Position numbers and translations under genes: made by a program. Under the pieces are notes generated by a model. The model searched no databases. It was not told where the DNA came from and saw only the letters and a program-made list of their open reading frames with translations. A stretch of 24,000 nt of DNA from an uncultured Alphaproteobacteria bacterium (GTDB lineage Bacteria > Pseudomonadota > Alphaproteobacteria > Rhizobiales > Beijerinckiaceae), in the NCBI GenBank assembly GCA_963710275.1, contig CAVPZS010000002.1, positions 529,669-553,668 on the forward strand, given 5' to 3'. Every line of letters begins with the position of its first letter. Position 1 is the first letter of the stretch. Positions 2,104-22,351 of the stretch are shown one piece after another.

Positions 2104-2156
2104 TATGGTTGAAGCTGCGGGCGCCTCTTCGTAGCGCTCCGCCTCCGGGGATCGAG

Positions 2157-3167
2157 ATGAAACCAATTCAAAAAATCTTCGCGATTGCATCGCTCGTCAT
2201 CGGCTTCCTTGTCCCGGCGGTCGCGGCGGAGCTTCCGAGCTATGGCCCACAGCTGGAGGGGTTTTCCTACCCCTTTCCCTTGGCCCATCTTGCCCTGGAG
2301 ACGCAGCGCAAGACCCTGGAAATGGGCTATATGGACGTGCCGCCCGCATCCAATCCCAACGGGCAGACGGCGGTGCTGCTGCATGGGAAGAATTTCTGCG
2401 CGGCGACCTGGGAAAGCACGATCCACGTCCTTTCCCAGGCCGGATATCGCGTGATCGCGCCGGACCAGATCGGTTTCTGCACCTCGTCGAAGCCGGCAAG
2501 CTATCAGTACTCGTTCCAGCAATTGGCGACCAACACCCATGCGCTGCTGGAAAAGCTCGGCGTCCGGAAAGCCGTGCTGATCGGACATTCGACCGGCGGC
2601 ATGCTGGCGACGCGCTATAGCCTGATGTTTCCCGAGGCGGTGTCGAAGCTGGTTCTCGTCGACCCAATCGGGCTGGAGGACTGGAAGGCGAAAGGCGTGC
2701 CCTACCGCACCATCGACCAGTGGTACGCCCGCGAGCTGAAACTCTCCGCCGAGGCGGTGAGGGCCTATGAATCGGAAACCTATTATGGCGGGCGCTGGAG
2801 GCCGGAATTCGACAAATGGGTGGAGATGCTGGCGGGCCTCAATCGCGGGCCTGGACATGAAGTCGTCGCGTGGAATTCGGCCCTGATCTACGACATGATC
2901 TTCACCCAGCCGGTGTTTTACGAATTTCCGAACTTGAAGGTTCCGACCGTCCTGATGATCGGCGACAAGGACAATACGGCGATCGGCCGCGACGCGGCGA
3001 GCCCGGAGGTCAAGGCCCAGCTCGGACATTACGACATCCTCGGCAAGCAGGTCGCCGCCATGATCCCGAGAGCCACCCTGATCGAATTTCCCGAACTCGG
3101 CCACGCGCCGCAAATTGAGCAGCCGGATCGTTTTCATGCCGAGTTGCTGAAGGCGCTCGCACAATAA
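2157..3167 (+). CDS. Secreted alpha/beta-fold hydrolase
   Basis: Signal peptide MKPIQKIFAIASLVIGFLVPAVAA, an HG oxyanion motif (VLLHGKNF), the nucleophile elbow GHSTGG, and a C-terminal catalytic His region (ELGHAPQIEQP). I chose the ATG at 2157 as the start; GGGGA lies a few nt upstream. Confidence 0.85.
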   Translation: MKPIQKIFAIASLVIGFLVPAVAAELPSYGPQLEGFSYPFPLAHLALETQRKTLEMGYMDVPPASNPNGQTAVLLHGKNFCAATWESTIHVLSQAGYRVIAPDQIGFCTSSKPASYQYSFQQLATNTHALLEKLGVRKAVLIGHSTGGMLATRYSLMFPEAVSKLVLVDPIGLEDWKAKGVPYRTIDQWYARELKLSAEAVRAYESETYYGGRWRPEFDKWVEMLAGLNRGPGHEVVAWNSALIYDMIFTQPVFYEFPNLKVPTVLMIGDKDNTAIGRDAASPEVKAQLGHYDILGKQVAAMIPRATLIEFPELGHAPQIEQPDRFHAELLKALAQ

Positions 3168-6178: not shown

Positions 6179-7642
6179 TCAGGCTGTCTTGTCAGGCGAT
6201 CCCAGGAACAGTTTCAGCGTCAGATTTTGAACGAAATTGAGATAGGGCGGATAAAACAAACCGACCGGGAAAAACCGATGCCGTTTGAAGACCGTCCTGG
6301 CATGCGACAATTCTCGGAATCCTTCGATGCCGGTATAGCTTCCCATGCCTGAATTGCCGACGCCGCCAAAGGGCGCCGCCTGGTTGATGGCGTGCCAGAT
6401 CCAATCGTTGATGGTGACGCCGCCCGATTGCGTATTGGTCAGCACGCTGTTGCGGGCTTCCCGATCGTGACCAAAGCAATAAAGGGCAAGCGGACGCTCG
6501 CGCGTATTGATGAATGTGATCGCGTCTTCCAGCTTGTCATAGGGAACGACTGGCAGAACCGGGCCGAAAAGCTCCTCCTTCAGGATTCGCATGTCAGCCG
6601 TGCAATTCGTGACGATGTGAAGCGGCATGCGCCGCCCATCGCGTTCGCGGTCGTAAGGCGCGCACGGAATGATTTTCGCGCCCAACCGGGCGGCGTCGGC
6701 GAGCACGTCCCATATACGAGCCAGAGAACGATCGTCTATGATCGAGGTATAGTCTCGCGGTTCGTGGAAACGCTCGCCGATCAGTTTGCCAGAGCAGGTC
6801 TTCACCTCCTGTATGAAGTCATCGACGCTTTCGCGCGGCGCGAGGGCGTAATCGGGCGAAAGACAGACCTGGCCGCAATTGACCGATTTCCCGTGAACGA
6901 TGCGCAACGCTGCTTCTGATAGCGAATAGCCGCGCGTGATCACCGCCGGACATTTGCCGCCGAGTTCAAGCGTCACGGGCGTCAGATTGTCCGCTGCCGC
7001 GCGCATGACCAATTTGCCGACACGCGGCGATCCGGTGAAGACGATATGGTCGAAGGGCAAGGTCGTGAATTCGGTGGGGTCCCGCAACTCGTCGCCAAAC
7101 ACGGCGACTTCGTCTTCGTCGAAGATTTCCCCAATGATCTTGCGCATCACGGCGCTGCTGGCGGGCAAGTTTTCCGAAAATTTGAGCATCACGCGATTTC
7201 CCGCCGCCAGCGCCGTGATCATGGGACCAAGGGCGAGGAAGAACGGGAAATTCCACGGCGAGATAATGCCGACAACGCCTTTGGGTTGATAATCGACTCT
7301 CAGACTGTTGCTCGCCATGAGCAATGTGGGCCAGCGGCGGCTCGGCCTCATCCATCGACGCAACTGCGAATGGACATGATCCGCTTGCAACGCCGTCGGG
7401 AGCAAGTCGAGCATCTTCGTTTCCGCGGCGGAGCGGGTGGCGAAGTCGCGGCTGACCGCTTCGCAGATCACATCCTGGTATCGGGCCACTTGCCGCTTGA
7501 TCGCCTTGATTTTTTTGCGCCGATCCGCCAGGGACGGGTAAGGGTTCAGCCGAAAGGCCTCTTTTTGCGCGTCAAAGATCCTCCTCAGGCGTGACTGGGA
7601 CTGATTGAACGTCGGCGTAGCGACGTTGGATAGCGTCATCAT
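6179..7642 (-). CDS. NAD(P)+-dependent aldehyde dehydrogenase (class 3 / coniferyl-aldehyde-DH-like)
   Basis: 487 aa. Catalytic motifs LELGGKCP and NCGQVCLSPDY, plus FGGVGNSGMGSY. An SD-like AAGGGAG lies 5 nt upstream of the ATGATG start on the minus strand. Confidence 0.9.
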   Translation of the reverse strand: MMTLSNVATPTFNQSQSRLRRIFDAQKEAFRLNPYPSLADRRKKIKAIKRQVARYQDVICEAVSRDFATRSAAETKMLDLLPTALQADHVHSQLRRWMRPSRRWPTLLMASNSLRVDYQPKGVVGIISPWNFPFFLALGPMITALAAGNRVMLKFSENLPASSAVMRKIIGEIFDEDEVAVFGDELRDPTEFTTLPFDHIVFTGSPRVGKLVMRAAADNLTPVTLELGGKCPAVITRGYSLSEAALRIVHGKSVNCGQVCLSPDYALAPRESVDDFIQEVKTCSGKLIGERFHEPRDYTSIIDDRSLARIWDVLADAARLGAKIIPCAPYDRERDGRRMPLHIVTNCTADMRILKEELFGPVLPVVPYDKLEDAITFINTRERPLALYCFGHDREARNSVLTNTQSGGVTINDWIWHAINQAAPFGGVGNSGMGSYTGIEGFRELSHARTVFKRHRFFPVGLFYPPYLNFVQNLTLKLFLGSPDKTA

Positions 7643-7990
7643 CTTGCTCCCTTGCTATTTTCTTGGAGCATGACGCCCGAGTGCGCCACGCCGCCGCAGG
7701 ATATAGTTCCGACGCCTCCTCGCCGGGCCGGCGCGTCCGATTACCGCCGCCCATGGCGCGTTCTTCACCGGCGACTGCCCAGCCATCCGGACAAAGCGCG
7801 AAAAGGCAAACCAGGAGAGCAGGATCATGCGCCCGGCCTGCGTCAACCGGACCGTACCTAAGTATGGGCGACGCGCGCCAGCGCCGCCCAACGCTTGCGG
7901 CCCCGCCGTCGAGGGGCCCCAACATACTTTACCGCCATCGCCAGCTTTCCGGCGATAACGCTCGTCAATGCCGCCCTGTTCCGACACCAG

Positions 7991-8030
7991 ACGTGTCATA
8001 AGCTATTGTTTTAACGATATTATCTTGAAA
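7991..8030 (+). promoter_or_regulatory. AT-rich island; candidate promoter region for the CuMMO operon (long 5' UTR) and/or the divergent ALDH gene
   Basis: This is the only strongly AT-rich stretch (acgtgtcataagctattgttttaacgatattatcttgaaa) in the 728-bp intergenic region. It has a TATTAT -10-like hexamer at 8018-8023 and a weak -35 (GTCATA, 7995-8000). No transcription start data. Confidence 0.2.
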
Positions 8031-8370
8031 CCCACGCAGCTCTGCCCGCTGATTCCGCAAGCATGTGTCCCCAAGCCAAACTTTGGTACAGGGCGGCAAC
8101 GCCTCCGGTCATGTATGTCTGAATAGAGGGTCTCGAATGGGAACGGCCGGCGTCGGCGCCGTTTGAGCAAATATGGGGCGGAAAAGGGCGGGCGAAGTCG
8201 TTACCGCAAAGCCCATTTAACTTCCGTCCCAAACCTGAACGACAATGCAAGTGACCCGCGAATACTGCGGGCGCCCCGGGGAAACAGGAAGCATCATTTT
8301 CGCCTTTGGCCTTTGCCCTCGTATTTTGGCGGCGCGGAAGGCGACACGATAAGCTTAGGGAGGAGTCTTC

Positions 8371-9187
8371 ATGTCTGTCGCTCAAGAATATGACCAGTCC
8401 GCCGCAGCCGCCGTCAAGGCGAAGGTTGTCGCAAAGCTGAAAGTGTTCAACGTTGTCCCGGTGGCGCTCGCCTGGGGTCTGCTCCTGGCCATTTTCGCGG
8501 GCTTGCGCATTTATCTGCAGCTTTTCGCGTTCAAATATGGTCTCGAACTCGACGGATCAGCTTTTCGAAACCTATTGGATGACGCTGTTCAAGGTGGAGC
8601 TTCCCTTGATCTTCGGAACCGGATTCGCCATCTGGATTTACTTGTGGGTGACCCGTGATCGTCATTTCGAGGCCTTGACGCCGGAAGTCGAGCTGAGGCG
8701 TTACTTCGGTCTGGTGGGCTGGTTCCTGGTCTATGTTTTCGCGTTCTTTTTGCTCGCGGCTGTCTTCGCCGAGGGCGACGCAACCTGGCATCAGACCGTG
8801 GTCCGGGATACGCCGCTGACCCCCAGCCATATCATCACTTTCTACGCTTGCGTGCCGGTCTATCTCGTCTGTGGCGTCGGCAGCCTGCTTTATGCGGTCA
8901 CACGGCTTCCCGCCTATGCCAAAAGCTATTCCGTGCCGCTGCTGATGGTCGTGATCGGGCCGGCCATGATCCTGCCCAACGTCGGCTACAACGAATGGGG
9001 CCACGCTTTCTGGTTCACTGAAGAAATCTTTTCCCATCCGCTGCATTGGGGCTTCCCGGTATTGGGCTGGACCGGCTTGGCCCTCGGCGGCGCGCTCGTT
9101 CAGGTCATGTCCCGCATGTCGCAGTTGTTTATCAAGCTGGGCGCAGCAACATCCAAGGAAGTCGCGCCGGCGCAGGCCGCCGAGTAA
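8371..9187 (+). CDS. pmoC: CuMMO subunit C (PmoC/AmoC family), interrupted by an apparent 1-nt insertion near 8554 (pseudogene or sequencing error)
   Basis: Strong SD GGGAGGAG at 8357-8364, 6 nt before the ATG at 8371. Frame 1 gives the N-terminus and TM1 (VALAWGLLLAIFAGLRIYLQLFAFKYGLELD). Frame 2 continues from 8555 with DQLFETYWMTLFKVELPL... GDATWHQTVVRDTPLTPSH ... NEWGHAFWFTEEIFSHPLHWGF. The joined length is about 271 aa, normal for PmoC. Confidence 0.85.
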
Positions 9188-9203
9188 CGCGACAGGTTCG
9201 GTC

Positions 9204-9226
9204 CCTGGGGTGTTTCTCACCCCAGG
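9204..9226 (+). promoter_or_regulatory. Perfect 9-bp stem / 5-nt loop hairpin in the pmoC-pmoA spacer
   Basis: CCTGGGGTG-tttct-CACCCCAGG. It lies 17 nt after the pmoC stop and is followed by an A-rich tract rather than a U-run, so it is not a canonical terminator. It may be an mRNA processing or stability element. Confidence 0.45.
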
Positions 9227-9272
9227 CTATCGCCTCGCCAAAAAACCAAAAATGCTTCTGGAGGAATTTGCA

Positions 9273-10121
9273 GTGACTGAGAATGATGCAGCCGTGCTTG
9301 GCGCCGCGGGAATGTCGCCGCAGGCGGCGATTTGGTCGAGGAAATTCGACATATTGGTCATCATCATTGCCGCTTTCTTTGTGGCGTCGGTGGTCTACAT
9401 CAACTTTCTCCTTTTTGCCGGTGATTGGGACTTTTTCATCGATTTCAAGGATCGTGAATATTGGGTGGTGATCTACCCCATCGTGCAGATCATGATGGTG
9501 GCGGCATTCCAGGCGATCTTCTGGAACCTGTTCCGGCTTCCGGTCGGCGCGACGGCGTGCGCCATCATGATGTCGATATTGGTGTGGTTTGAGCGTTATC
9601 AAAGCTGGGGAGGCCTGTCCTATTTCCCCATCACGCTGGTGGCGCCGGGCACCTTCTTCGCAGGCGCGCTGATCCTGGATGGAATGTTGTGCGTCACGCG
9701 CAGTTTCCTCGTGACGGGACTTTTTGGCGGCGCGCTATTCGGCCTGACCTTTTATCCAAGCAATTGGGCTTTCTTCGCACCCTATTACCAACCCGTGAAG
9801 CTGATGGACAGCGTCGTGCCGCTCGCCAGCATGATCGGTTACGAATTCGCCCGGACAGGCACGCCCGAATATGTTCGGTTGATCGAACGCGGCACGCTGA
9901 GAACCTTCGGCAGCCCGGTCTGGGTTTCGGTGTTCTTTTCCTGTTTCGTCTGCAGTCTCCAGTACCTCGTCTGGTGGCTATTGGGCTCCCTCGCCGCCAA
10001 GGCGGCTTTCATCCCCGTCGGATACCGATTCAAGCAACTTTACGGCGCGAACGACACGGGTCAATCCGACGAGAAAAATTCTGTCGGCCTGAACGTCAAG
10101 ACGACGGGAGGCGTGGCATGA
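9273..10121 (+). CDS. pmoA: CuMMO subunit A (PmoA/AmoA family), divergent
   Basis: Contains FAGDWDFFIDFKDREYW, FRLPVGAT, SYFPITLVAP, FYPSNW and RTGTPEYVRLIERGTLRTFG. A GTG at 9273 sits 7 nt after GGAGGA (9260-9265). The alternative ATG at 9252 has no SD. The stop overlaps the pmoB start (ATGA at 10118-10121). Confidence 0.9.
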   Translation: MTENDAAVLGAAGMSPQAAIWSRKFDILVIIIAAFFVASVVYINFLLFAGDWDFFIDFKDREYWVVIYPIVQIMMVAAFQAIFWNLFRLPVGATACAIMMSILVWFERYQSWGGLSYFPITLVAPGTFFAGALILDGMLCVTRSFLVTGLFGGALFGLTFYPSNWAFFAPYYQPVKLMDSVVPLASMIGYEFARTGTPEYVRLIERGTLRTFGSPVWVSVFFSCFVCSLQYLVWWLLGSLAAKAAFIPVGYRFKQLYGANDTGQSDEKNSVGLNVKTTGGVA

Positions 10122-11383
10122 AACTCAAATTCTGGCGGAATCCAGCCCTCCTGCCGCTGGTCCTCATCCTGTTCGGACTTCTTCCCAAAACTGCGATGGC
10201 GCTGGGAGAGAAGTCGACCGAGCCCTATATCCGCACGCGAACCGTGCTTTGGTATGACGTGAAGTGGAGCGCCGATAAAGTCGCCGTGAACGACACGGTG
10301 ACGGTGACAGGGAAGTTCCATCTTTTCACCGATTGGCCCGACGCTTCCAATCGGCCCGACCTGGTCTTCCTGGGAGAAACCACGCCCGGCGCGAGCATGA
10401 CCCGCGTCGAGAGTTATATCGACGGCGTGCCAGCCAACCAGTCGACGCGCGGCCTGGAACTGGGCAGCGAACATGAAGTGAAGCTGGTTTTGAAGGCCCG
10501 CGTGCCAGGCCGCTGGCATCTTCAGCCCGAACTGAATGTCAAGGGCGCCGGGCCGATCATCGGTCCGGGCAAATGGATCGAGATCACCGGCGACTTTGCC
10601 GACTATCGGAACTCCGTGACGACGGTCACCGGGGTCGAGATTCCCGACTTGCAGACCTACAACATCGGCCGGGTCCACGCCTGGCACGCGTTCTGGTTTG
10701 TCTTGGGCGTCGCATGGATTCTGTGGTGGCTTCGCAGACCCCTGCTGATCCCACGCTGGATTGCGATGAAAGCGGGGCGCGACGACATTCTCGTGACCAG
10801 CGCGGATGACAAATTCGGAGCGGGACTGATCGTGGTGGCGCTGGTGGCCACGGTGGCCGGCTTCTGGAACATCAATCAGGAGTTTCCTTATACCGTGCCG
10901 CTTTCCGCCGGATCGAACAAGGTCCAGGCGCCTCCCGAACAACCTCACCCCGTGAAGTTCACGGACGCGCGGGCTGAATACGATGTTCCCGGTCGCACCT
11001 TGCGGCTTTACGCGACAGTCACAAATTCGGGCGCGCTTCCCCTGCGGATCGGCGAGTTCACGACGGCGCAACTTCGTTTCGTCAATCGCGACCTGCCGGC
11101 GGAGATCAAGAACATCGATCCCGACTACCCGAAAGTGCTGATCGCGCCGACTCCTTTGAAAGTCGACCCTGACACGCCGATTCAACCCGGCGAGACGCGG
11201 AAGGTTTACATGGAGGCGACAGACGCCGCCTGGGAGACAGAGCGCCTGATGAGCTTCCTGAACGACATCGACACCCGGATCGGCGGCCTCATGTTCGTCT
11301 TCGACGATGCGGGGAAGCGGTATCTCGCTGAAATCGGTGGACCGGTTGTGCCGGTCTTCGCGCAAAAAACGAGCCAACGCTAA
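10118..11383 (+). CDS. pmoB: CuMMO subunit B (PmoB/AmoB family), divergent, CuB ligands incomplete
   Basis: 421 aa. Signal peptide MKLKFWRNPALLPLVLILFGLLPKTAMA, then LGEKSTEPYIRTRTVLWYDVKW, GKFHLF, PGRWHLQPELNVKGAGPIIGPGKWIEITG, AWHAFWFVLGVAWILWWLRRPLLIPR, and the C-terminal cupredoxin domain (PGETRKVYMEATDAAWETERL). Confidence 0.9.
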   Translation: MKLKFWRNPALLPLVLILFGLLPKTAMALGEKSTEPYIRTRTVLWYDVKWSADKVAVNDTVTVTGKFHLFTDWPDASNRPDLVFLGETTPGASMTRVESYIDGVPANQSTRGLELGSEHEVKLVLKARVPGRWHLQPELNVKGAGPIIGPGKWIEITGDFADYRNSVTTVTGVEIPDLQTYNIGRVHAWHAFWFVLGVAWILWWLRRPLLIPRWIAMKAGRDDILVTSADDKFGAGLIVVALVATVAGFWNINQEFPYTVPLSAGSNKVQAPPEQPHPVKFTDARAEYDVPGRTLRLYATVTNSGALPLRIGEFTTAQLRFVNRDLPAEIKNIDPDYPKVLIAPTPLKVDPDTPIQPGETRKVYMEATDAAWETERLMSFLNDIDTRIGGLMFVFDDAGKRYLAEIGGPVVPVFAQKTSQR

Positions 11384-11415
11384 GTTGCAGCGGCCTCGCC
11401 GGGATACGAAGACGA

Positions 11416-12066
11416 ATGAATAGACAAGCTATTCCGCGTCGTGCAGGCAGGGAGCAGGCTTCTGCTCCCTGCCGCGCCAGCCATCGGCGCGCCCGCGTTC
11501 TCGGAGCACTGGGGTTGCTTCTCGCCGCCTCGCTTCCCGGCCCCGCCACGGGCCATGGCGGCGTCGCCATGGACAAGGACGTGTGCAAGCTGCGGCTCGG
11601 CCCCTATGTCATGCATTTCACGGGCTATCAGGTTCGCAACTTCGGCGGGAACACCGAATTTTGCGAGGATATCCCGGCGCTTGGCAAGACGATCCTCGTC
11701 ATGGACGCGGTCGACCCTGTCTTGCGCGAGATCCCGATCACCGCCCGTATCGTTCGTGACGTCGGCGGCGGCAATAAGTTGACCGAAATGGGATCTGAAA
11801 TCGACAAGGTCACGATCGTCAAAATTCCGGAAAAGGTCTATCCGACCGGAAGCTTGTCGATGGAATATGATTTCAAGCAGCCAGGGTATTTCGTTGGCGT
11901 TGTGACCGCAGGCCCACATGGCGAATATGTTTCGATGTTCCCATTCAGTGTCGGCGTCAACCGGAATGCGTATTGGCTCTACGCATTCTTGGCGGCGATT
12001 CCGGTCTTCGTCTTCGGCCTTTTCGCCTATTCGGTTCGGAACCGAAAAACACGTGAGAAAGGCTGA
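11416..12066 (+). CDS. Periplasmic protein with C-terminal TM anchor in the PmoD/AmoD position (family not confirmed)
   Basis: 216 aa. Arg-rich n-region with an RR pair, hydrophobic core VLGALGLLLAASL, and a predicted cleavage ATG|HGGV that would leave an N-terminal His. A beta-rich body contains C..(9)..MH. C-terminal helix AYWLYAFLAAIPVFVFGLFAYSV followed by basic residues. It starts 32 nt after pmoB and ends 1 nt before copC. Confidence 0.6.
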   Translation: MNRQAIPRRAGREQASAPCRASHRRARVLGALGLLLAASLPGPATGHGGVAMDKDVCKLRLGPYVMHFTGYQVRNFGGNTEFCEDIPALGKTILVMDAVDPVLREIPITARIVRDVGGGNKLTEMGSEIDKVTIVKIPEKVYPTGSLSMEYDFKQPGYFVGVVTAGPHGEYVSMFPFSVGVNRNAYWLYAFLAAIPVFVFGLFAYSVRNRKTREKG

Positions 12067-12067
12067 C

Positions 12068-12478
12068 ATGATGTTCGAAATTTTACCAAGGGGCGGCCAT
12101 CGCTGGCGGGCGGCTGGAATATTATGTTGCGCGCTGTTCCATGCCGCCGGTTCGAGTTCCGCCCTTGCGCATGCGGGGCTGGTGAAGTCCGTTCCCGGCA
12201 GCCGCGCCGTCCTGGATCACCCGCCGAGCCAGATCGAGTTGTGTTTCAACGAGCGTGTCGAACTGAAATTCTCGACGGTAGGACTAACAGCGCCAAACGG
12301 CGAGAAGCTTGCCCTGGGCCCGCTTTCGGCGGGTGAGACCGAGCCGAAATGCCTGCGCGCTTCCGCGCCGGAACTGAAGGATGCCGGCGTCTACACCGTG
12401 AGATATCGCGTCCTTTCTACCGATGGGCACGTCGTCGACTATGGCTTCACGTTCAGCTACCAGCCCAAGACGAAATGA
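12068..12478 (+). CDS. copC: Periplasmic copper-binding protein CopC (Cu(II)-only type, no Met-rich Cu(I) site)
   Basis: Signal peptide ending SALA|HAGLVKSVPG (mature N-terminal His). The hallmark is YRVLSTDGHVVDYGFTF. The mature domain contains no Met residues. The stop overlaps the copD start (ATGA at 12475-12478). Confidence 0.9.
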   Translation: MMFEILPRGGHRWRAAGILCCALFHAAGSSSALAHAGLVKSVPGSRAVLDHPPSQIELCFNERVELKFSTVGLTAPNGEKLALGPLSAGETEPKCLRASAPELKDAGVYTVRYRVLSTDGHVVDYGFTFSYQPKTK

Positions 12479-14475
12479 CTCCGGCGATCTGGCTCGTCTT
12501 GCTGCGAGGCGTCGGCCATGGCTGCCTGGCGCTCGCTGCGGGCGGGACTTTGTTTCTGCTGATTTCCCGGCAGACCGCGGATCCCCCCACCATCGCGTGG
12601 ACCCGTCGTTGGCATCGCTATTTGCCTTGGGTCGCGGCGGTCTATCTTGTTTGCACGACAGCTGCTTTGTTTTTTCAGGCGGCGATCGCCGCTGACATGC
12701 AGCCAGCGCTGATGATCCACGACATAGAAATGTTGCGCGCCTATGTCCTCGACACGCGACACGGGAGGATGGCGCTCGCCAATCTGGGCGTTGCGGTCCT
12801 GATGCTCCCTCCAGCGCTAATTCTGTCGTTCCATCGCTGCAGTGACACAGGCGAGAGATTTGCTTTGGCGGCCTTGGCTGCCTTGGCGGCGGCGACGGCG
12901 GGAATGGGCCCGCTGTCAGGACATGCCGCGGCCGACGAGACGACATATTGGCTCGTTCCTTTTCATGTCGGCCATCTCGTGGCGATGTCGCTGTGGATTG
13001 GCGGCCTGCCGCTCTGGATCGCCTTCGCCCACTGGTCTGCGCGACACGCAACTTCCGCATCGCCCGCTTCCGCGCGCATCGTGCGCAGCTTCTCCTCGCT
13101 GGCGACACTCTGCATGGCGGTGATTGTCGTTTCCGGCGTGTTGCTGGCCAGCACATTCGCGGGATCGGTCGGCGACCTTCTCGGCACGAGCTATGGCTAC
13201 CTGATTTGCGCCAAACTGGCGCTGCTTGCGGGCGTATTGCTGATCGCCAACCGCATCCGCCAGCAGTTTCTCCCGCGTCTCTCTGACGCCGGCGATCCCG
13301 GTTACGCGCGGGCGGCGCGATCCGTGGCCGTCGAGCTTCTTTTCGCCCTGCTTATACTCGCCCTCGCCTCTATCCTGGCCCAGACCGCTCCAGCGATCCA
13401 CGATCAGCCGATCTGGCCGCTGCCCTTCCGCTTCTCCCTGGACGCAACGTGGCCCGCGTGGCCCACTCCGCTCGTTACGACCATCGCAATACTGGCCGCA
13501 GCCGCCGCCCTCGGCCTGCTCGTCGCCCGACGTCAACGGTTGGCGCCATCGACACGCGCGATCTGCCTCTTGGTCGCTGTCATCGGTATCGGCGTTGCCG
13601 GCTGGCAAGTGTCCGTCCCCGCTTTCCCGGATACTTATCGCCGCTCGACAGTCCCCTATCTGACCGTCTCGATTGTGGAGGGCATGCGCAACTTCAACAG
13701 CTTGTGCACGGGCTGCCATGGAGCTGGTGCGCTGGGCGACGGACCATTACGCGGTTCGTTGCCGGGACGGCCGCCCGCCAATCTCAGCGAACCGCATACG
13801 GCGCTGCATACCGCCGGCGACATGTTCTGGTGGATCGGTCACGGCATTCCCTCGAGCGGCATGCCTTCATTCGCCGACCAGCTGGATGAGCAGGCGCGCT
13901 GGGATACGATCAACTTCCTCCGCGCCTTTTCCGAGGGATTCCAGGCGCGCATCCTGCAGCCCTTCGTCATTCCCGACCGGCCCTGGTTGGGCGCGCCGAA
14001 TTTCAACTTCGCCGGCAAAGACGGCGAACAGCGCGAGCTGAAGGATTACCGCAACAAATCCAACGTGCTTCTCGTGTTCGCGTCGCGCGACGCAACCGAT
14101 GCGACCCGGCGCGCCCAACAACTTGGGAGCGCTTTGGAGGCGCTGCGCGCCGCCCGATGCGAAATCCTCTTCGTCGTCTCCGACGCCGCCATCGACGACA
14201 TGGGCTTCGAAGTCATTCGCGATCAGGCGGAAGAACTGCGCGCCGCCTACGATTTGTTATCGAGAACCATTGCCAACCGCGGCGACGGACGACAGCTCGG
14301 AATGCGGCGCGACAGCATGGAATTTCTCATAGATCGCTTCGGTTTTCTTCGCGCGCGATGGATACCCGCCGAAGACCCCGGGCGTTGGACGCGCCCTCAG
14401 ACATTGGCGTCTGATCTGCGCATCCTCAACGATGAACCACAAATCCTGGCGTCACCGGACAATCATGTCCACTGA
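12475..14475 (+). CDS. copD: CopD-family membrane protein fused to a c-type cytochrome domain and a Cys-less thioredoxin/peroxiredoxin-like domain
   Basis: 666 aa. CopD core with GHAAADE and HVGHLVAMSLWIGGLPL motifs and multiple TM helices. CxxCH (CTGCH, nt 13705-13719) with a downstream GMPSF Met ligand. A C-terminal redoxin-like segment (NVLLVFASRD..., MEFLIDRFGFLRARWI) has no Cys at the active-site position. Confidence 0.85.
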   Translation: MTPAIWLVLLRGVGHGCLALAAGGTLFLLISRQTADPPTIAWTRRWHRYLPWVAAVYLVCTTAALFFQAAIAADMQPALMIHDIEMLRAYVLDTRHGRMALANLGVAVLMLPPALILSFHRCSDTGERFALAALAALAAATAGMGPLSGHAAADETTYWLVPFHVGHLVAMSLWIGGLPLWIAFAHWSARHATSASPASARIVRSFSSLATLCMAVIVVSGVLLASTFAGSVGDLLGTSYGYLICAKLALLAGVLLIANRIRQQFLPRLSDAGDPGYARAARSVAVELLFALLILALASILAQTAPAIHDQPIWPLPFRFSLDATWPAWPTPLVTTIAILAAAAALGLLVARRQRLAPSTRAICLLVAVIGIGVAGWQVSVPAFPDTYRRSTVPYLTVSIVEGMRNFNSLCTGCHGAGALGDGPLRGSLPGRPPANLSEPHTALHTAGDMFWWIGHGIPSSGMPSFADQLDEQARWDTINFLRAFSEGFQARILQPFVIPDRPWLGAPNFNFAGKDGEQRELKDYRNKSNVLLVFASRDATDATRRAQQLGSALEALRAARCEILFVVSDAAIDDMGFEVIRDQAEELRAAYDLLSRTIANRGDGRQLGMRRDSMEFLIDRFGFLRARWIPAEDPGRWTRPQTLASDLRILNDEPQILASPDNHVH

Positions 14476-14500
14476 CTGGGAAAAGAGGAGGAGCATCAAG

Positions 14501-14953
14501 ATGAAAAAATATTTGGCCATCATGGCCCTGACGGCCGGTCTGCTCGCGCAAACCCCTGCTTGGGCGCAAACTCCCGAGCATCACCATCATGACGCCGATG
14601 CGCCGTCGATGGCCGCGGCTGCTGTCGCGACGCCGCCGCTCAAAATCCTGATGCCGGAAAACGGCGACGCTGTCGGAACGACGCTGGGAGTCATTTTCCA
14701 AACGCCCGCCGATCTCGCGGTGATGACGATCGGTAGCGGCGAGCCCGGCGTTCATCTTCATATCGAGATCGCAGGCAAGACATTGATGCCGACGCACCAG
14801 AAACTCGTAGGCCTCGGAGAGAACCGGTATTTTTTCCCTTTCGACTTGCCGGCCGCCCTGGGTCCCAACACGATCAAGATCTATTGGGCGGACAAGCAGC
14901 ACCGGACCATCGCGGATAGCGTCCAGGAAGTGCGGGTCACGGTCAAGCCGTGA
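14501..14953 (+). CDS. His-rich periplasmic protein (possibly DUF4399-like), putative metal binding
   Basis: SD AAGAGGAGGA at 14483-14492. Signal peptide MKKYLAIMALTAGLLAQTPAWA, mature N-terminus QTPEHHHHDADAP, and an internal GVHLHIEI. It begins 25 nt after copD and is the last gene of the + strand run. Confidence 0.7.
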   Translation: MKKYLAIMALTAGLLAQTPAWAQTPEHHHHDADAPSMAAAAVATPPLKILMPENGDAVGTTLGVIFQTPADLAVMTIGSGEPGVHLHIEIAGKTLMPTHQKLVGLGENRYFFPFDLPAALGPNTIKIYWADKQHRTIADSVQEVRVTVKP

Positions 14954-14976
14954 CGGATGCTTGCTCGGAAAGCTCT

Positions 14977-15897
14977 TTACCGAGATTGCCCCTGGATCGT
15001 CGCGCCAGCCGCCTGATGCGCGAGGAAACCGACAATTTCCCGGGGATCGCCGGCCCAGCGCAAATGGCCGCGCCTGGGCTCGCAATAAGTTGTCGGCGCC
15101 GAGCAACCGCTGAAAGTAACACAATCGCCGGCTGACGAGGGCTGCGGTTTTCCGCTGTCCTGACAGCGGTTGCAGCTTGACCAATAGGCGGCTGCGTCCC
15201 GACCGAAGCCAGGAAAATGTCCGTCATCTGCGCCATGCATGATGAGGACGGGCAGCGGAGCGCCGCAAGCGGCGGAATCGAAATCGCTTTTTTCCCAGCC
15301 GGCGCCGCTGATGGCGATACCGTGGAAGAGCCGGCCGTATTTGGGCAAGACGGCAAGGGCCGTAGCAATTGTGCCGCCATCCGAGTGACCAGTTGCATAG
15401 ATACGATCGGGATCGACGCACCAACGGTCTTTGACCTCGCGAACAACCGCCGCAAAATGGTCAATCGCCGCCAGGCTCATCTGGAGACTGCCGACATAGG
15501 TCACGATGAAGCCGGCCTGCGTCGCCTCGGCGGTGAGACCCGCGTATCGTTCCGATAGCCATGGAGGGAAACCAGCAGGCGCATAAACGACCAGCAGCGG
15601 ATGGGCGTAGCCCGCCAGGTAGTTGCGGGGCGTTATCACCGTAAAGGGCAGCCCCGCGCCGCTGCGCATTTCATGCCTGCCCGCTGTTCCCTGGCGCGTC
15701 CCGAGCGGACAGGAGGTGGCGCTGGCGGCGGCGCCGGGATACGAAGCGTCGGCGGATTCGATCATGTCTCCAGCGTAAAACAGCGTTCTCATGACGAAAC
15801 ATACGGCAACACCCGCCACAAGAAGGCCGAGCGCATAGACGCGGATGCGTGTCGGGACCGAACGCAACGACATCAGGAAGTCAGGTCCAGGATTCAT
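14977..15897 (-). CDS. Membrane-anchored alpha/beta hydrolase (esterase / PHB-depolymerase-like)
   Basis: N-terminal TM helix (VYALGLLVAGVAVCFV), nucleophile elbow GHSDGG, LIMHGADDGHFP, and a Cys-rich C-terminus. The start is uncertain: Met at 15897 or 15873. The upstream part of the ORF reaching 15987 looks non-coding. Confidence 0.7.
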   Translation of the reverse strand: MNPGPDFLMSLRSVPTRIRVYALGLLVAGVAVCFVMRTLFYAGDMIESADASYPGAAASATSCPLGTRQGTAGRHEMRSGAGLPFTVITPRNYLAGYAHPLLVVYAPAGFPPWLSERYAGLTAEATQAGFIVTYVGSLQMSLAAIDHFAAVVREVKDRWCVDPDRIYATGHSDGGTIATALAVLPKYGRLFHGIAISGAGWEKSDFDSAACGAPLPVLIMHGADDGHFPGFGRDAAAYWSSCNRCQDSGKPQPSSAGDCVTFSGCSAPTTYCEPRRGHLRWAGDPREIVGFLAHQAAGATIQGQSR

Positions 15898-16039
15898 GCG
15901 GCGCAACCAGCATCGGAAGCAACGACACCCCGGCCTTGCATCGTCACAAGGGGGCGTTGAAGCGATAAACATCGGTCCGGCCATCACCGGCAGTTACAGT
16001 TTGGCCAGCCATGACAGCCTTGTCTCCGGCCATTTCGAC

Positions 16040-16130
16040 TTTCTGCGATTTTCCCAGCGCCAGTAACTGGCATTTCGCTGACGAATTCAATGTTTTTTGG
16101 CATATTGCGCCCTGCGAGCAGGGGAAGCGC
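16040..16130 (-). pseudogene. Short remnant of the C-terminus of an AMP-dependent synthetase/ligase (acyl-CoA ligase)
   Basis: The minus-strand translation LLAGRNMPKNIEFVSEMPVTGAGKI matches the near-universal C-terminal motif of adenylate-forming enzymes (YK.P..IEFV.ELP.T.SGKI). No upstream body is present and it overlaps a neighbouring gene start. Confidence 0.4.
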
Positions 16131-16194
16131 GACTGCGAACGCCGGCCGGCCGAGTCGTCGCCATGACCTTGCGCTCCGGGAGATCTGCGCCACC

Positions 16195-16770
16195 ATGACC
16201 GAAACCGATCCCTCTCCAGCCGCAGCGGCGCCGACATCGCAGCAAGGGGCCTATCCGCGCTGGCAGATCACCTTGTCGTTTGTCCTCGGATGGGTGTTCG
16301 TCATCGCCGGCCTGGGAGGGCTTTTCGCGACGCCGTTCCTGATTTGGCGGACACGCGACTTTGTCGCCCATGCCGTCCATGCCAACGCGCCGATCGTGGA
16401 ATTCAAAGCCTACCCGCCCGGCAAAAACCAAAGCCATGAAACCTATCGCCCTATCGTTGAAGTCAGCGATGCCGGCGGCGCATCGGCGCGCGTTCTCGTC
16501 GGCGGCGCCGACTTCCCCAGCCCGTATCGCATCGGCGGCCAGATTGAGGTTCTCTACCCGCCGGGGAAGCCGGCGGACGCGGTGATGAACACCACGGAGG
16601 ACACATGGGGCTCCGTCATCGCCGTCCTGATCCTTTCCCCCTTCCTGCTGCTCATCGGCCTTGGCGCCATCGCCTGGATGCGATTTTTCGTCAAGCATCC
16701 GCCCGAGCATCTCTACTGGATCGATCGATGGTTCGCGCCGATCAAGATCGTCCTGCAATTGCTGCGCTAG
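16195..16770 (+). CDS. DUF3592-like two-TM membrane protein
   Basis: 191 aa from the ATG at 16195. Layout is TM, then a beta-domain (ETYRPIVEVSDAGG...YRIGGQIEVLYPPGKPADAVM), then a second TM. Architecture and motifs resemble DUF3592 as I remember it. Confidence 0.6.
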   Translation: MTETDPSPAAAAPTSQQGAYPRWQITLSFVLGWVFVIAGLGGLFATPFLIWRTRDFVAHAVHANAPIVEFKAYPPGKNQSHETYRPIVEVSDAGGASARVLVGGADFPSPYRIGGQIEVLYPPGKPADAVMNTTEDTWGSVIAVLILSPFLLLIGLGAIAWMRFFVKHPPEHLYWIDRWFAPIKIVLQLLR

Positions 16771-18492: not shown

Positions 18493-19287
18493 TCAGGGCT
18501 GATCGAGGCGCGCAGTTCCGATTTCTTCGCGTATCGCCTGCACGAGTTCCGCTCCCAATGAACGGGACATCCGGGAGGTCGGGACGACGATGCCCAATGC
18601 GGCCTCGCCGGTAAAACCCATGGGCGCGCGCATCCCCACGCCTCCCAGCCTCCGGCCGACGATTTCGGCGTAGCCGAGCTTGCGGACCTGGCGCGCCCAG
18701 CGCAACAGGCGGGTCGTCGTCATGCCCTGGGCGAGGTAGAGATCGCGATTGCGCTCATGGTGGGCGATGGCCTCGGCATCGTTCATCCGGCCCAGAAAGA
18801 CGAAGCTCGGCACGCCGAGTCCAAGAAGGCGCATGGTGCCGACGACCTCGGTAAAGCTGCGGATCGGCGTCGGCCCTTCCTCGATTGCGATGCACTGGCT
18901 GTAGTCGCCCGCGCGCGCGACCAGGAAGACGTGTTCGCCGGTGCGCTTGGCGAGCGCGCGCATGACGGGCTTGTAAATGCGCGCCAGCGGCGGCCGGCGC
19001 ATCGAGGCGAGGCCCAGCGCCATCGCCTCCACACCCAACTGGTACAGATGCGTTTCGGGATCGCGCTCGACCAGCCCGGCGCGCGCCAACGCAGAAATAA
19101 TCCGGTGGACCGTCGTCCTGTTGAGCCCGCTTCGACGGACCAGCGTCGCCAGAGGCGCGCCCTGCGCATGGCGGGCGGCGACGAGCCGCAACAAAAGCGC
19201 GGCGCGGTCAGTACTCTGCGCGCCGCGCGGCGGCGCGGTCCCGCCAGCTTCGTCGTCGCGCGCATCAGCAATTGGACTATCCAGCAT
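18493..19287 (-). CDS. IclR-family transcriptional regulator
   Basis: 264 aa. N-terminal wHTH (LATLVRRSGLNRTTVHRIISALARAGLVERD) and a C-terminal IclR effector domain. Confidence 0.9.
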   Translation of the reverse strand: MLDSPIADARDDEAGGTAPPRGAQSTDRAALLLRLVAARHAQGAPLATLVRRSGLNRTTVHRIISALARAGLVERDPETHLYQLGVEAMALGLASMRRPPLARIYKPVMRALAKRTGEHVFLVARAGDYSQCIAIEEGPTPIRSFTEVVGTMRLLGLGVPSFVFLGRMNDAEAIAHHERNRDLYLAQGMTTTRLLRWARQVRKLGYAEIVGRRLGGVGMRAPMGFTGEAALGIVVPTSRMSRSLGAELVQAIREEIGTARLDQP

Positions 19288-19297
19288 TTCACTATTG

Positions 19298-19359
19298 TGT
19301 TCACATTGTAAACATCATCGCAACGCTTTCGTTGACGGCGAGCAGCGCCGGAGCCGATA
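19298..19359. promoter_or_regulatory. Divergent promoter region with two palindromes (candidate IclR operators)
   Basis: TGTTCAC-att-GTAAACA at 19298-19314 (6 of 7 symmetric) and the perfect palindrome ATTGCGCAAT at 19350-19359. Both sit in an AT-rich patch between the IclR gene and the CoA-transferase operon. Confidence 0.25.
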
Positions 19360-19445
19360 ATTGCGCAATAAATATCACGACCGGACGGACGGCTGCAGCT
19401 CGGCGGTCACGAACCGGTCGCAAGAAAAGCTGCCTGGAGGATGAC

Positions 19446-20660
19446 GTGGCCGCTCTTTCGAATATTCGTGTCCTTGACCTGACCCGCGTCGTGGCGGGTC
19501 CGTTGACGACCCAGGTTCTTGCCGACCTCGGGGCCGAGGTGATCAAGATCGAGAAGCCGGGAGAAGGCGACGACACGCGAAGGATGGGCCCGTTCCTCAA
19601 GGACGCGGCAGGACGCGACACCAATGATTCCGCGTTCTATCTGGCCTGCAATCGCAACAAGAAGTCGGTGACGCTCGACATTTCCACCGCTTCCGGGCAG
19701 GCGATCGCGCGCGACCTCGCGGCGCAATGCGACGTGTTCATCGAAAACTACAAGTCCGGCGCCCTCGCCCGTTACGGGCTCGATTATCCTCGCGTCAGCG
19801 AACTCAACCCCCGGGTGGTCTATTGCTCGGTGACCGGCTTCGGCGCCGACGGCCCTTACGCGGGCCGCCCTGCCTACGACTTCATCCTGCAGGGCATGTC
19901 CGGCCTCATGAGCACCTGCGGCCAGCCTGAGGGCGCGCCGGGCGGCGCGCCTATGCGCGCCGCCGTCCCCATCACCGACATGGTGACCGGCCTCTACGCC
20001 GCCATCTCCGTGCTGGCGGCGCTCCGCCAGCGCGACGAAACGGGCCGCGGGCAATATATCGACGCGGCGATGATCGACGCTTCGGTCGCGATGAACGGCC
20101 ACCTCGCCATCGGCTATCTGATGACCGGTCAGGTTCCCGGCCGGATCGGCAACGCCAATCCCATCGCCGCGCCATCGGAAACCTATGCAACCAGCGACAG
20201 TCGCATCATCGTCGCCGCCGGCAACAACAACCAGTTCGCAGCGCTTGCGAAAGCCCTGGGACGGCCCGACCTTCTCGAGGATCCGCGCTTCGCGTCGAAC
20301 CCCGAGCGCGTGCGCAACCGCGCCGCGCTTGCCGAGCGGCTCGGCGCGCATTTTCTGGCCGACACCGGAAAGAACTGGGTCGAGCGGTTGAGCGCGGCCG
20401 GCGTTCCCTGCGGCCCGATCAATGACATGGCGGCCGTGTTCGCCGACCCTCAGGTGAGACAGCGCGGCATCCAGCTCAGCGCGCCGCACGGACGCGGGAT
20501 CGAATCCCCGATGCTCAAGAGTCCCCTGAACATGTCGGATTCACCGGTCGAATACCGCGCCGCGCCGATGCTGGGCGCCGACACCGACCAGATCTTGCGT
20601 GAGCGGCTTGGCATGAGCGCGGCGCAGATCGCGCAACTGCGCGCCGAAAACACAATCTGA
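19446..20660 (+). CDS. Family III CoA-transferase (CaiB/BaiF)
   Basis: LSNIRVLDLTRVVAGPLTTQVLADLGAEVIKIEKPGEGDDTR is the classic N-terminus. A GTG at 19446 sits 4 nt after GGAGGA. The upstream ORF extension to 19272 overlaps the promoter region. Confidence 0.88.
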   Translation: MAALSNIRVLDLTRVVAGPLTTQVLADLGAEVIKIEKPGEGDDTRRMGPFLKDAAGRDTNDSAFYLACNRNKKSVTLDISTASGQAIARDLAAQCDVFIENYKSGALARYGLDYPRVSELNPRVVYCSVTGFGADGPYAGRPAYDFILQGMSGLMSTCGQPEGAPGGAPMRAAVPITDMVTGLYAAISVLAALRQRDETGRGQYIDAAMIDASVAMNGHLAIGYLMTGQVPGRIGNANPIAAPSETYATSDSRIIVAAGNNNQFAALAKALGRPDLLEDPRFASNPERVRNRAALAERLGAHFLADTGKNWVERLSAAGVPCGPINDMAAVFADPQVRQRGIQLSAPHGRGIESPMLKSPLNMSDSPVEYRAAPMLGADTDQILRERLGMSAAQIAQLRAENTI

Positions 20661-20715
20661 CGGAGCGCCGAGGTCGTCCTTGGGCTTCCCGACTGACGCG
20701 AGAAGAAAAACAGCC

Positions 20716-22329: not shown

Positions 22330-22351
22330 TCGCGCCTTCGAGGAGCCCAGG

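Follow-up and report, generated by a model that had tools for sequence, protein, structure and literature searches.

A copper membrane monooxygenase gene cluster with an altered CuB site and a frameshifted pmoC in a Beijerinckiaceae contig

Results

A CuMMO cluster of the Bradyrhizobium/Solimonas type

We analyzed a 24,000-nucleotide stretch of DNA from an uncultured alphaproteobacterium of the family Beijerinckiaceae (contig CAVPZS010000002.1, positions 529,669 to 553,668; referred to below as the window) and found that the seven consecutive, co-directional coding regions on its plus strand between 8371 and 14953 are, as judged by sequence, a copper membrane monooxygenase (CuMMO) cluster of a little-studied Bradyrhizobium/Solimonas-type lineage. 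The cluster combines a PmoB with an altered CuB copper site, a PmoC whose copper ligands are conserved and a copper-handling tail that includes a CopD-cytochrome c fusion and a secreted His-rich protein (ORF7). A preliminary description of the same DNA had proposed a seven-gene CuMMO cluster at this position, and all the families involved were confirmed by profile and structure matches, but pmoC is not a single open reading frame (ORF). The three catalytic subunits are homologous to PmoC, PmoA and PmoB and are encoded in the order C-A-B that defines a CuMMO; their Pfam families (PF04896, PF02461 and PF04744) all score far above the gathering thresholds, and matches to PDB entries have E-values from 1e-50 to 1e-111. 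The PmoC ligand motifs expected of a CuMMO, DATWHQ...PSH for the CuC site and NEWGH...PLH for the CuD site, are present as well, whereas an intact set of three subunit genes is not, as pmoC is split by a 1-nt insertion.

PmoA is 40–42% identical to the solved proteins of ammonia monooxygenase (AMO) and particulate methane monooxygenase (pMMO; three AmoA and two PmoA) and 43% identical to Haliea ETY-M. Its nearest relatives are found at 92–93% (metagenome), 79–81% (uncultured Bradyrhizobium), 72–74% and 69–71% identity, followed by Solimonas aquatica at 64–65% and by a large set at 52–63%, the members of which include, by cluster look-up, Rhodoferax ferrireducens, Polaromonas, Comamonadaceae, Nevskia, Panacagrimonas and Polycyclovorans. 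A neighbour-joining tree of 180 PmoA sequences, built without bootstrap, puts the protein in a six-member subclade, together with metagenome-assembled genomes (MAGs) of Bradyrhizobium, inside a 74-member clade that takes in Rhodoferax, Polaromonas, Nevskia, Panacagrimonas, Polycyclovorans and Solimonas and excludes all five solved references and the Haliea ETY-M ethylene enzyme; the tree does not place it inside the characterized pMMO or AMO clades. This placement and the shared GDWDFF motif make the enzyme a member of the Rhodoferax/Polaromonas/Nevskiales-type CuMMO clade. The divergent PmoA motif to which the preliminary description had drawn attention, GDWDFFIDFKDREYW, is indeed there, but GDWDFF.D... 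is a signature of the whole 74-sequence clade and not of this locus.

The claim that the subunits lie far from characterized enzymes stands, with PmoA at 40–43% identity and no subunit within a characterized clade at more than 85%, and with both PmoA and PmoC below the NCBI equivalog cut-offs. PmoA scores 237.9 bits against a cut-off of 318 (TIGR03080) and 249.8 against 290 (AmoA_BACT), and PmoC, repaired as described below, 268.6 against 280.6 and 312.3 against 319 (AmoC_BACT); PmoB alone passes the generic CH4/NH3 monooxygenase B equivalog (436.5 vs. 394.9 bits). The top NCBIfam models for the subunits are AmoA/B/C_BACT, and the best PDB matches of PmoA are AmoA chains (213 bits vs. 195 for pMMO). 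The interpretation as a divergent, uncharacterized CuMMO holds, but the lineage itself is already on record, with the same seven-gene order in S. aquatica, where the CuMMO is listed as being of "unknown function" (PMC6215863). As a separate observation, a 90%-identity cluster of PmoA from uncultured Bradyrhizobium (P0002, 79% identical to the window PmoA) occurs on 323 contigs from many sources, which means that a Bradyrhizobium-type CuMMO is no rarity among public assemblies.

Loss of the CuB His-brace with retention of the PmoC copper sites

Alignment with Methylococcus capsulatus PmoB revealed Leu in place of His33, Gln in place of His139 and a conserved His at His137, so that the CuB His-brace formed by these three residues lacks two of its histidines; the ligands reported as missing in the preliminary description are thus two of three rather than all. 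The same Leu-His-Gln pattern occurs in five lineages of the subclade (the window and loci L083, L001, L087 and L085), the PmoBs of which are 68–90% identical, and His-His-His is found in S. aquatica and in all 45 other PmoBs from related loci. Among the 150 best representatives from a library of 1.84 billion proteins, 69 full-length PmoBs carry His-His-His and three carry X-Pro-Gly, and Leu-His-Gln appears in none except a 73-residue fragment of the Bradyrhizobium-type subclade. From their pattern, we take the three X-Pro-Gly representatives to be verrucomicrobial. In PmoC, the CuC (Asp, His, His) and CuD (Asn, His, His) ligands are intact (D..H..H and N..H..H), and the motifs DATWHQTVVRDTPLTPSH and NEWGHAFWFTEEIFSHPLH are kept in six of six lineages.

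Pairwise ratios of nonsynonymous to synonymous substitution (dN/dS) against three relatives range from 0.12 to 0.39 across all eight genes, the neighboring hydrolase gene included, and from 0.13 to 0.17 for pmoB. Because purifying selection acts on every gene, the CuB-less state is old and maintained rather than a sign of decay. The CuB site is described as "generally conserved" but is absent in verrucomicrobial pMMOs (PMC13058606), and its loss here does not, therefore, by itself exclude the protein from the CuMMOs. In a mycobacterial hydrocarbon monooxygenase (HMO), CuB mutants keep activity while CuC mutants lose it (PMC13058606). On sequence comparison, the subclade appears to be a second case in which CuB was lost naturally, independent of the first because Verrucomicrobia belong to a different phylum. 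A non-exhaustive literature search yielded no paper mentioning CuB loss in the Bradyrhizobium-type subclade, and the loss, the dedicated His-rich ORF7 and the CopD fusion all appear to be previously undescribed. The fuller proposition, that this subclade is the second independent and first proteobacterial CuMMO lineage without a CuB His-brace that is under purifying selection, with PmoC copper sites intact and always with a dedicated copper-delivery set, is one we advance tentatively, holding it slightly less probable than its negation.

A single extra base interrupts pmoC

The preliminary description had treated pmoC as one ORF starting at 8371, which the sequence contradicts: the frame-1 ORF comprises only 95 codons, ending at the TGA stop at 8656–8658, and the rest of the gene lies in frame 2. 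Past codon 59, the frame-1 reading runs out of register until that stop. When one base is removed and the 59 frame-1 codons are joined to the frame-2 codons that begin at 8549, the product is a 271-aa PmoC; it aligns colinearly with PmoC of a Bradyrhizobium MAG (L001), which likewise has 271 aa, and covers positions 10–248 of the 250-position NCBIfam AmoC profile, compared with 55–248 for the frame-2 ORF alone. As the extra A comes after codon 59, full-length PmoC is impossible unless this base is a sequencing error, and the operon is not intact as sequenced.

To locate the difference, window positions 7300–10719 were compared base by base with L082, a public contig from the Logan assembly of run ERR11563597. 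Over 3418 bp, the two are 99.8% identical, with 4 single-nucleotide polymorphisms (SNPs) and 2 single-base gaps, one of which is the extra A at 8546 (GAA vs. GA) that shifts the pmoC frame. The only other indel, of the same kind, is an extra G at 8278, upstream of pmoC (G4 vs. G3, in the run CCCCGGGG). A second contig from the same run, L084, differs from window positions 11184–15278 by one SNP and no indel in 4095 bp. Since pmoC is uninterrupted in L082 and in five other relatives (L083, L001, L087, L085 and S. aquatica; 271–275 aa, with 259 in Solimonas), the frameshift is specific to the present record. A scan of metagenomes for nearer PmoC relatives found none above 67% identity.

The extra A would reflect either an error in the consensus or a mutation that inactivated the gene very recently, and we regard the choice between the two as roughly even. 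That the mutation is genuine, leaving this strain with a freshly inactivated, pseudogene-bearing cluster and no working enzyme, is a serious possibility to which we give a little less than an even chance: the base stands in the given sequence, L082 is also 4 SNPs apart and thus a different genotype, from which an indel may be a true difference, a Shine-Dalgarno sequence is lacking at the internal frame-2 starts (TTG 8453 and ATG 8537), and PmoC carries the putative active site. On the other side, the other seven genes are full length and both halves of pmoC are otherwise intact, both indels relative to L082 lengthen a run by one base (at 8278 from G3 to G4, at 8546 from A to AA), as is typical of consensus errors, and L084, obtained in the same sequencing run as L082, is free of indels over its 4095 bp. 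Programmed +1 ribosomal frameshifting yielding full-length PmoC was considered because both frames are open across 8441–8658, and was rejected as barely credible, as CUC-GAA-CUC contains neither a slippery nor a stall motif and L082 (99.8% identical), like the five other relatives, encodes PmoC in one frame. For annotation, pmoC of this record should be treated as frameshifted.

The copper-handling tail: PmoD, CopC and a CopD-cytochrome c fusion

The protein in the PmoD position, so named in the preliminary description, proved to be a true PmoD homolog: it matches Methylocystis PmoD (PDB 6CPD) with both Cys aligned and has a transmembrane helix at residues 184–202, while no Pfam family was found for it. 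The motif in the window and in all five relatives is C-x8-M-H...C, with the His in register and the Met displaced by one position, and none of the six has C-x7-M-x-H-xn-C, which defines the CuA-forming subgroup of PmoD (PMC6189053). A conserved His is located at the predicted mature N-terminus. CopC (Pfam 73.2 bits vs. a cut-off of 23.3) has the fold and putative Cu(II) site of its family, including a predicted mature N-terminal His (ALA/HAG...) and a conserved D-G-H, with no Met in the predicted mature part. These features would make it a CopC of the Cu(II)-only type.

The next protein qualifies as CopD (PF05425, 72 bits vs. a cut-off of 32.1), with about nine predicted transmembrane segments and the GHAAADE motif kept in its membrane part, after which come a CxxCH haem motif (CTGCH) with a GMP Met and then a thioredoxin-fold domain without CxxC. 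Its C-terminus (14461–14475) ends in ...PD.HVH, invariant in five of five lineages compared, which could be a metal-binding tail. A literature search on CopD-cytochrome c fusions found nothing relevant. The copper tail had been presented as expanded, which applies to part of it, for pmoD-copC-copD tails have been described in methanotrophs of the Alphaproteobacteria and nitrifiers of the Betaproteobacteria (PMC6189053), and what is added here is the His-rich protein and, on CopD, the cytochrome c/thioredoxin-fold extension; Methylosinus trichosporium needs PmoD for its copper-dependent growth (PMC6189053). From domain content and co-occurrence, we infer that PmoD, CopC, the CopD fusion and ORF7 may constitute a module for periplasmic copper acquisition, reduction and insertion.

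ORF7, a His-rich secreted protein found beside CuMMO genes in all contexts examined

ORF7 has a signal peptide, a His-rich N-terminus with an HHHH tract, an invariant H-L-H, and invariant Met and His residues. Its family consists of only 25 homolog clusters, every one annotated "hypothetical", and profile and PDB sequence searches returned no family and no PDB match, nor did Pfam return a match to PCuAC. The AlphaFold model predicts an Ig-like beta-sandwich (core predicted local distance difference test score 85–94), for which a fold search of the PDB retrieved only generic Ig/FnIII-like neighbors, with CopC far down the list. DUF4399 (PF14347) does not match the window ORF7 and matches 17 of 24 family members weakly (best E 0.0089). 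In every context examined (L001, L024/25, L038-42, L083, L087/88 and L089-93), ORF7 homologs adjoin CuMMO genes.

Two of these loci, from a Bradyrhizobium sp. MAG (GCA_017881085.1), represent a second CuMMO lineage in which PmoA is fused to PmoB in one 684-codon ORF (L092, 5629–7683; L093, 5662–7716) that retains a PmoB signal-peptide-like segment and an A/HGE site. The operon order there is copC, copD-cytochrome c, ORF7, pmoC, pmoA::pmoB and pmoD; in the clade of the window, pmoA and pmoB merely overlap (ATGA).

Gene layout and conservation of the operon

The coordinates of all features are collected in Table 1. The tight packing noted in the preliminary description was reproduced, with spacers between successive operon genes of 85, -4, 32, 1, -4 and 25 nt, and the two ATGA overlaps fall exactly at 10118–10121 (pmoA/pmoB) and 12475–12478 (copC/copD). 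The start of the seventh gene, previously set at 14432, is most likely 14501, which gives 150 aa and is the start of the public gene call. Shine-Dalgarno sequences are clear ahead of pmoC, pmoA, pmoB and ORF7, and pmoA has further in-frame starts at 9210 and 9252, ahead of the GTG at 9273. That the operon forms a single transcription unit is a reasonable inference from this arrangement. A promoter and terminator scan of 7600–16200 gave counts not above those in shuffled sequences and no convincing internal terminator, and an Rfam scan of the whole window had no match.

Table 1. Coordinates and supporting evidence for the CuMMO cluster and adjacent genes (window positions)
Feature	Position	Strand	Evidence and remarks
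pmoC, first 59 codons	8371..8547	+	Frame 1; homologous to N-terminus of intact PmoC in L001, L082 and L083
pmoC frameshift site	8546..8547	+	GAA vs. GA in relatives; one extra A (DNA alignment)
pmoC, remaining 212 codons	8549..9187	+	Frame 2; Pfam AmoC 1.2e-77; PDB alignments; carries CuC and CuD ligands
pmoA, 282 aa from GTG 9273	9273..10121	+	Pfam AMO 3.8e-70; identical to public protein P0123
pmoB, 421 aa	10118..11383	+	Pfam Monooxygenase_B 2.8e-136; CuB positions Leu/His/Gln
pmoD homolog	11416..12066	+	PDB 6CPD E=4.9e-17; signal peptide, cupredoxin-like domain, C-terminal transmembrane helix
copC	12068..12478	+	Pfam CopC 3.5e-20; alignment
copD fusion, 666 aa	12475..14475	+	Pfam CopD, Cytochrom_C, AhpC/TSA
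ORF7, secreted His-rich protein, 150 aa	14501..14953	+	25 homolog clusters, all "hypothetical"
Membrane-anchored alpha/beta-hydrolase, GHSDGG motif	14977..15987	-	Convergent; weak Pfam/NCBIfam/PDB esterase matches
Aldehyde dehydrogenase, coniferyl-aldehyde-dehydrogenase-like	6179..7642	-	Divergent from operon; Pfam Aldedh 2.3e-75
MalT-like STAND (signal transduction ATPase with numerous domains) ATPase with LuxR-type helix-turn-helix	3193..5967	-	Pfam GerE, AAA_16; NCBIfam MalT 3.4e-57, below cut-off

One 746-kb public contig encodes proteins identical to the window's PmoA, CopD fusion, ORF7 and IclR regulator. Close relatives of the operon that bear a name are all Bradyrhizobium MAGs. The seven-gene order is kept in L083, L001, L087/L088 and the S. 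aquatica genome, as is the pmoA/pmoB overlap; the copC/copD overlap is kept in all except S. aquatica.

Neighboring genes and signs of lateral transfer

The hydrolase encoded just downstream of ORF7 is Cys-rich, predicted to be periplasmic and weakly similar to polyhydroxybutyrate (PHB) depolymerases and feruloyl esterases (dN/dS 0.16–0.29). Its homologs adjoin CuMMO genes in L001, L083, L087 and L089, where the gene lies upstream, and in about 14 other loci (L006, L007, L016, L022, L024, L034, L036, L045, L049, L050, L055, L058, L059 and L061), so that it is found, in variable position and orientation, beside the CuMMO operons of many unrelated lineages. The divergently encoded aldehyde dehydrogenase is a candidate downstream pathway enzyme; its only close homolog is 91% identical, the others being at most 68% identical and of mixed taxa, and aldehyde dehydrogenase genes adjoin pmoC also in L085 and L087. 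The MalT/LuxR-type protein is, by context only, a candidate regulator. Farther upstream, two plus-strand genes (838–2103 and 2091–3167) overlapping by 13 nt encode hydrolases, one a type-1 short-chain polyhydroxyalkanoate (PHA) depolymerase-like esterase (NCBIfam 326 bits, above cut-off) and the other an alpha/beta-hydrolase. Between the downstream hydrolase and an acyl-CoA dehydrogenase-like gene lies a 226-aa plus-strand ORF (16090–16770) without a Pfam or NCBIfam family, overlapped on the opposite strand by a 254-aa ORF without a Pfam family. The downstream acyl-CoA dehydrogenase, CoA-transferase and carboxyltransferase genes, considered as a propionate pathway, were left out of the system because they are not conserved beside the operon in relatives.

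In the relatives, the neighbors comprise a quinohemoprotein pyrroloquinoline quinone (PQQ) alcohol dehydrogenase (ADH), aldehyde dehydrogenase (ALDH), Zn-dependent alcohol dehydrogenase, short-chain dehydrogenases/reductases (SDRs), an enzyme resembling flavin-containing or Baeyer-Villiger monooxygenases (FMO/BVMO-like) and a glucose-methanol-choline (GMC) oxidoreductase, with regulators of the AraC or sigma-54 type; the PQQ dehydrogenases carry a cytochrome c domain and are thus of the quinohemoprotein ADH type. In L091, the gene for an AlkB-type fatty-acid-desaturase/rubredoxin fusion (15057–16475) is situated downstream of a Solimonas-type CuMMO cluster, at a distance of a few kb, and would give that neighborhood a second alkane hydroxylase. 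Neither the 24-kb window nor the flanking DNA of the relatives contains methanol dehydrogenase, hydroxylamine oxidoreductase or C1 genes, and there is no hao, cycAB or amoE nearby.

The G+C content is 0.56–0.62 over the operon (8000–12500) and 0.65–0.68 in the downstream flank (19000–22500). Insertion sequence or integrase genes, a TraD gene or a phage-type integrase lie near the operons of relatives, the flanking genes of which vary. Lateral transfer of the CuMMO module is likely on account of the lower operon G+C, these mobile-element genes and the differing flanks. A plasmid collection searched in DNA and protein modes contained no related plasmid and gave only short or distant alphaproteobacterial matches.

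Discussion

A proposed function for the cluster

Cumulatively, we favor, with somewhat more confidence than doubt, the view that the locus is a horizontally mobile CuMMO cluster that oxidizes its substrate, likely an alkane, at a PmoC site and brings its own copper-supply module. PmoC, PmoA and PmoB would form the membrane enzyme, with oxidation taking place at the PmoC copper site or sites, so that the lineage could work without a canonical CuB. Copper would be captured as Cu(II) by CopC. The CopD membrane protein, which carries a c-type cytochrome and a redox-dead thioredoxin-fold domain, would move and perhaps reduce it, after which the membrane-anchored PmoD and the secreted His-rich ORF7 may deliver it to the enzyme. 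Alcohol and aldehyde dehydrogenases, among them the one encoded next to the operon, would process the alcohol formed.

With regard to the substrate, phylogeny and gene neighborhoods suggest, as the most likely candidate, a short- or medium-chain alkane or a similar small hydrophobic molecule; we regard the alkane proposal as having an even chance of being correct. Alkane oxidation is suggested because alcohol and aldehyde dehydrogenases are the usual neighbors in relatives. The preliminary description held that the substrate could not be read from the DNA, and it is true that nothing in the sequence fixes it, but the neighborhoods of relatives do point to alkane and alcohol metabolism. Sister lineages of Rhodoferax and Polaromonas have reportedly been linked to ethane and propane use, by labelling and reverse transcription PCR, in work of Rochman and colleagues from 2020.

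Other small substrates, for example ketones (acetone), alkenes, ethers or halogenated compounds, make a less probable but respectable alternative, in which the esterase, BVMO-like and SDR neighbors would mark a ketone/ester route. Acetone is oxidized by a verrucomicrobial pMMO homolog (PMC8630023) and ethylene is a substrate of the Haliea enzyme (PMC6215863); these operons are accompanied by an esterase-like hydrolase gene, and L087 has an FMO/BVMO-like gene and an SDR gene nearby. The hydrolase is, however, predicted to be periplasmic and only weakly esterase-like, and PQQ-ADH and ALDH neighbors are the more consistent ones across lineages. A methane monooxygenase conferring facultative methanotrophy is improbable. 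While PmoB exceeds the generic CH4/NH3 monooxygenase B cut-off and the pmoCAB-pmoD-copC-copD layout is like that of alphaproteobacterial methanotrophs (PMC6189053), PmoA is only 40–41% identical to solved pMMO and lies outside the pMMO clade, PmoA and PmoC score under the equivalog cut-offs, and the PQQ dehydrogenases in the flanks of relatives are quinohemoprotein ADHs, with no methanol dehydrogenase or C1 genes there or in the window. Equally hard to sustain is an AMO serving heterotrophic or co-metabolic nitrification, to which the AmoA chains among the PDB matches and the best NCBIfam models would point, given the AmoA identity of only 41%, the scores of PmoA and of repaired PmoC below both curated AMO cut-offs, and the absence of hao, cycAB and amoE nearby.

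Several points weigh against an alkane-oxidizing, PmoC-dependent enzyme with its own copper supply. In this record, pmoC is frameshifted. The alkane link comes from a sister lineage about 57% identical in PmoA, itself with indirect evidence, and pathway inference from context is soft because flanking genes differ between relatives. A metal might still be bound by the retained His137, the Gln and the N-terminal amine. For CopD-cytochrome c, PmoD and ORF7, the proposed roles derive from domains only, and the fold of ORF7 is a generic one.

The site of copper catalysis in pMMO- and AMO-type enzymes and the role of CuB have been debated for two decades. The natural counter-example to CuB cited so far is verrucomicrobial (PMC13058606), and a proteobacterial lineage with Leu/His/Gln at CuB, CuC and CuD kept, and purifying selection would provide an independent natural test; if the enzyme is active, CuB would be dispensable for catalysis in a genetically tractable bacterial group. 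Copper-loading factors, the lack of which may help to explain the difficulty of producing recombinant CuMMOs, have concrete candidates in ORF7 and the CopD-cytochrome c fusion; were the enzyme active, both would be new CuMMO maturation factors. Relatives in Bradyrhizobium and the cultured sister S. aquatica are easier to manipulate than methanotrophs or nitrifiers, and in ecological terms the cluster would add Alphaproteobacteria common in soil to the bacteria capable of copper-dependent hydrocarbon oxidation.

Comparison with known systems

The operon of Methylosinus trichosporium OB3b (pmoCAB-pmoD-copC-copD-pCuAC) likewise has the enzyme genes followed by those for PmoD, CopC and CopD. It differs in about 40% PmoA identity, in that the window PmoD has C-x8-M-H and not the CuA-forming C-x7-M-x-H, in the cytochrome c and thioredoxin-fold domains of the window CopD, and in the last position, which is held here by ORF7 and not by PCuAC. 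Betaproteobacterial AMO (amoCABED-copCD; PDB 9CL6, 9LEG and 9PXF) provides the top-scoring solved PmoA homologs and shares the copCD tail (PMC6189053), yet PmoA identity is 41%, CuB is intact in AMO and the window has no amoE or hydroxylamine pathway genes nearby. Mycobacterial HMO is a CuMMO for C2–C4 alkanes that tolerates mutation of CuB but not of CuC (PMC13058606). It belongs to an actinobacterial lineage, and its likeness to the window enzyme is one of functional analogy rather than of sequence comparison.

At CuB, verrucomicrobial pMMOs have X-Pro-Gly, judging from three representatives that we assume to be verrucomicrobial, as opposed to Leu-His-Gln here, and Methylacidiphilum oxidizes methane. 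Shared with the window is the absence of the CuB His-brace together with conserved CuC and CuD ligands (PMC13058606). The Rhodoferax/Polaromonas lineage belongs to the same 74-sequence PmoA clade and also has pmoD after pmoB; its cluster P0029 (Rhodoferax ferrireducens, Polaromonas) is 57% identical to the window PmoA, but it forms a separate subclade, and related metagenome loci keep His-His-His at CuB. The closest cultured counterpart is that of Solimonas aquatica DSM 25927 (GCA_900111015.1, L089), in which the PmoB keeps three CuB histidines, the proteins are 50–64% identical to those of the window and a sigma-54 activator lies near the cluster instead of the MalT/LuxR-type regulator, while the seven genes in the same order, the pmoA/pmoB overlap, a PmoA of the GDWDFF motif family and alcohol dehydrogenases next door are common to both.

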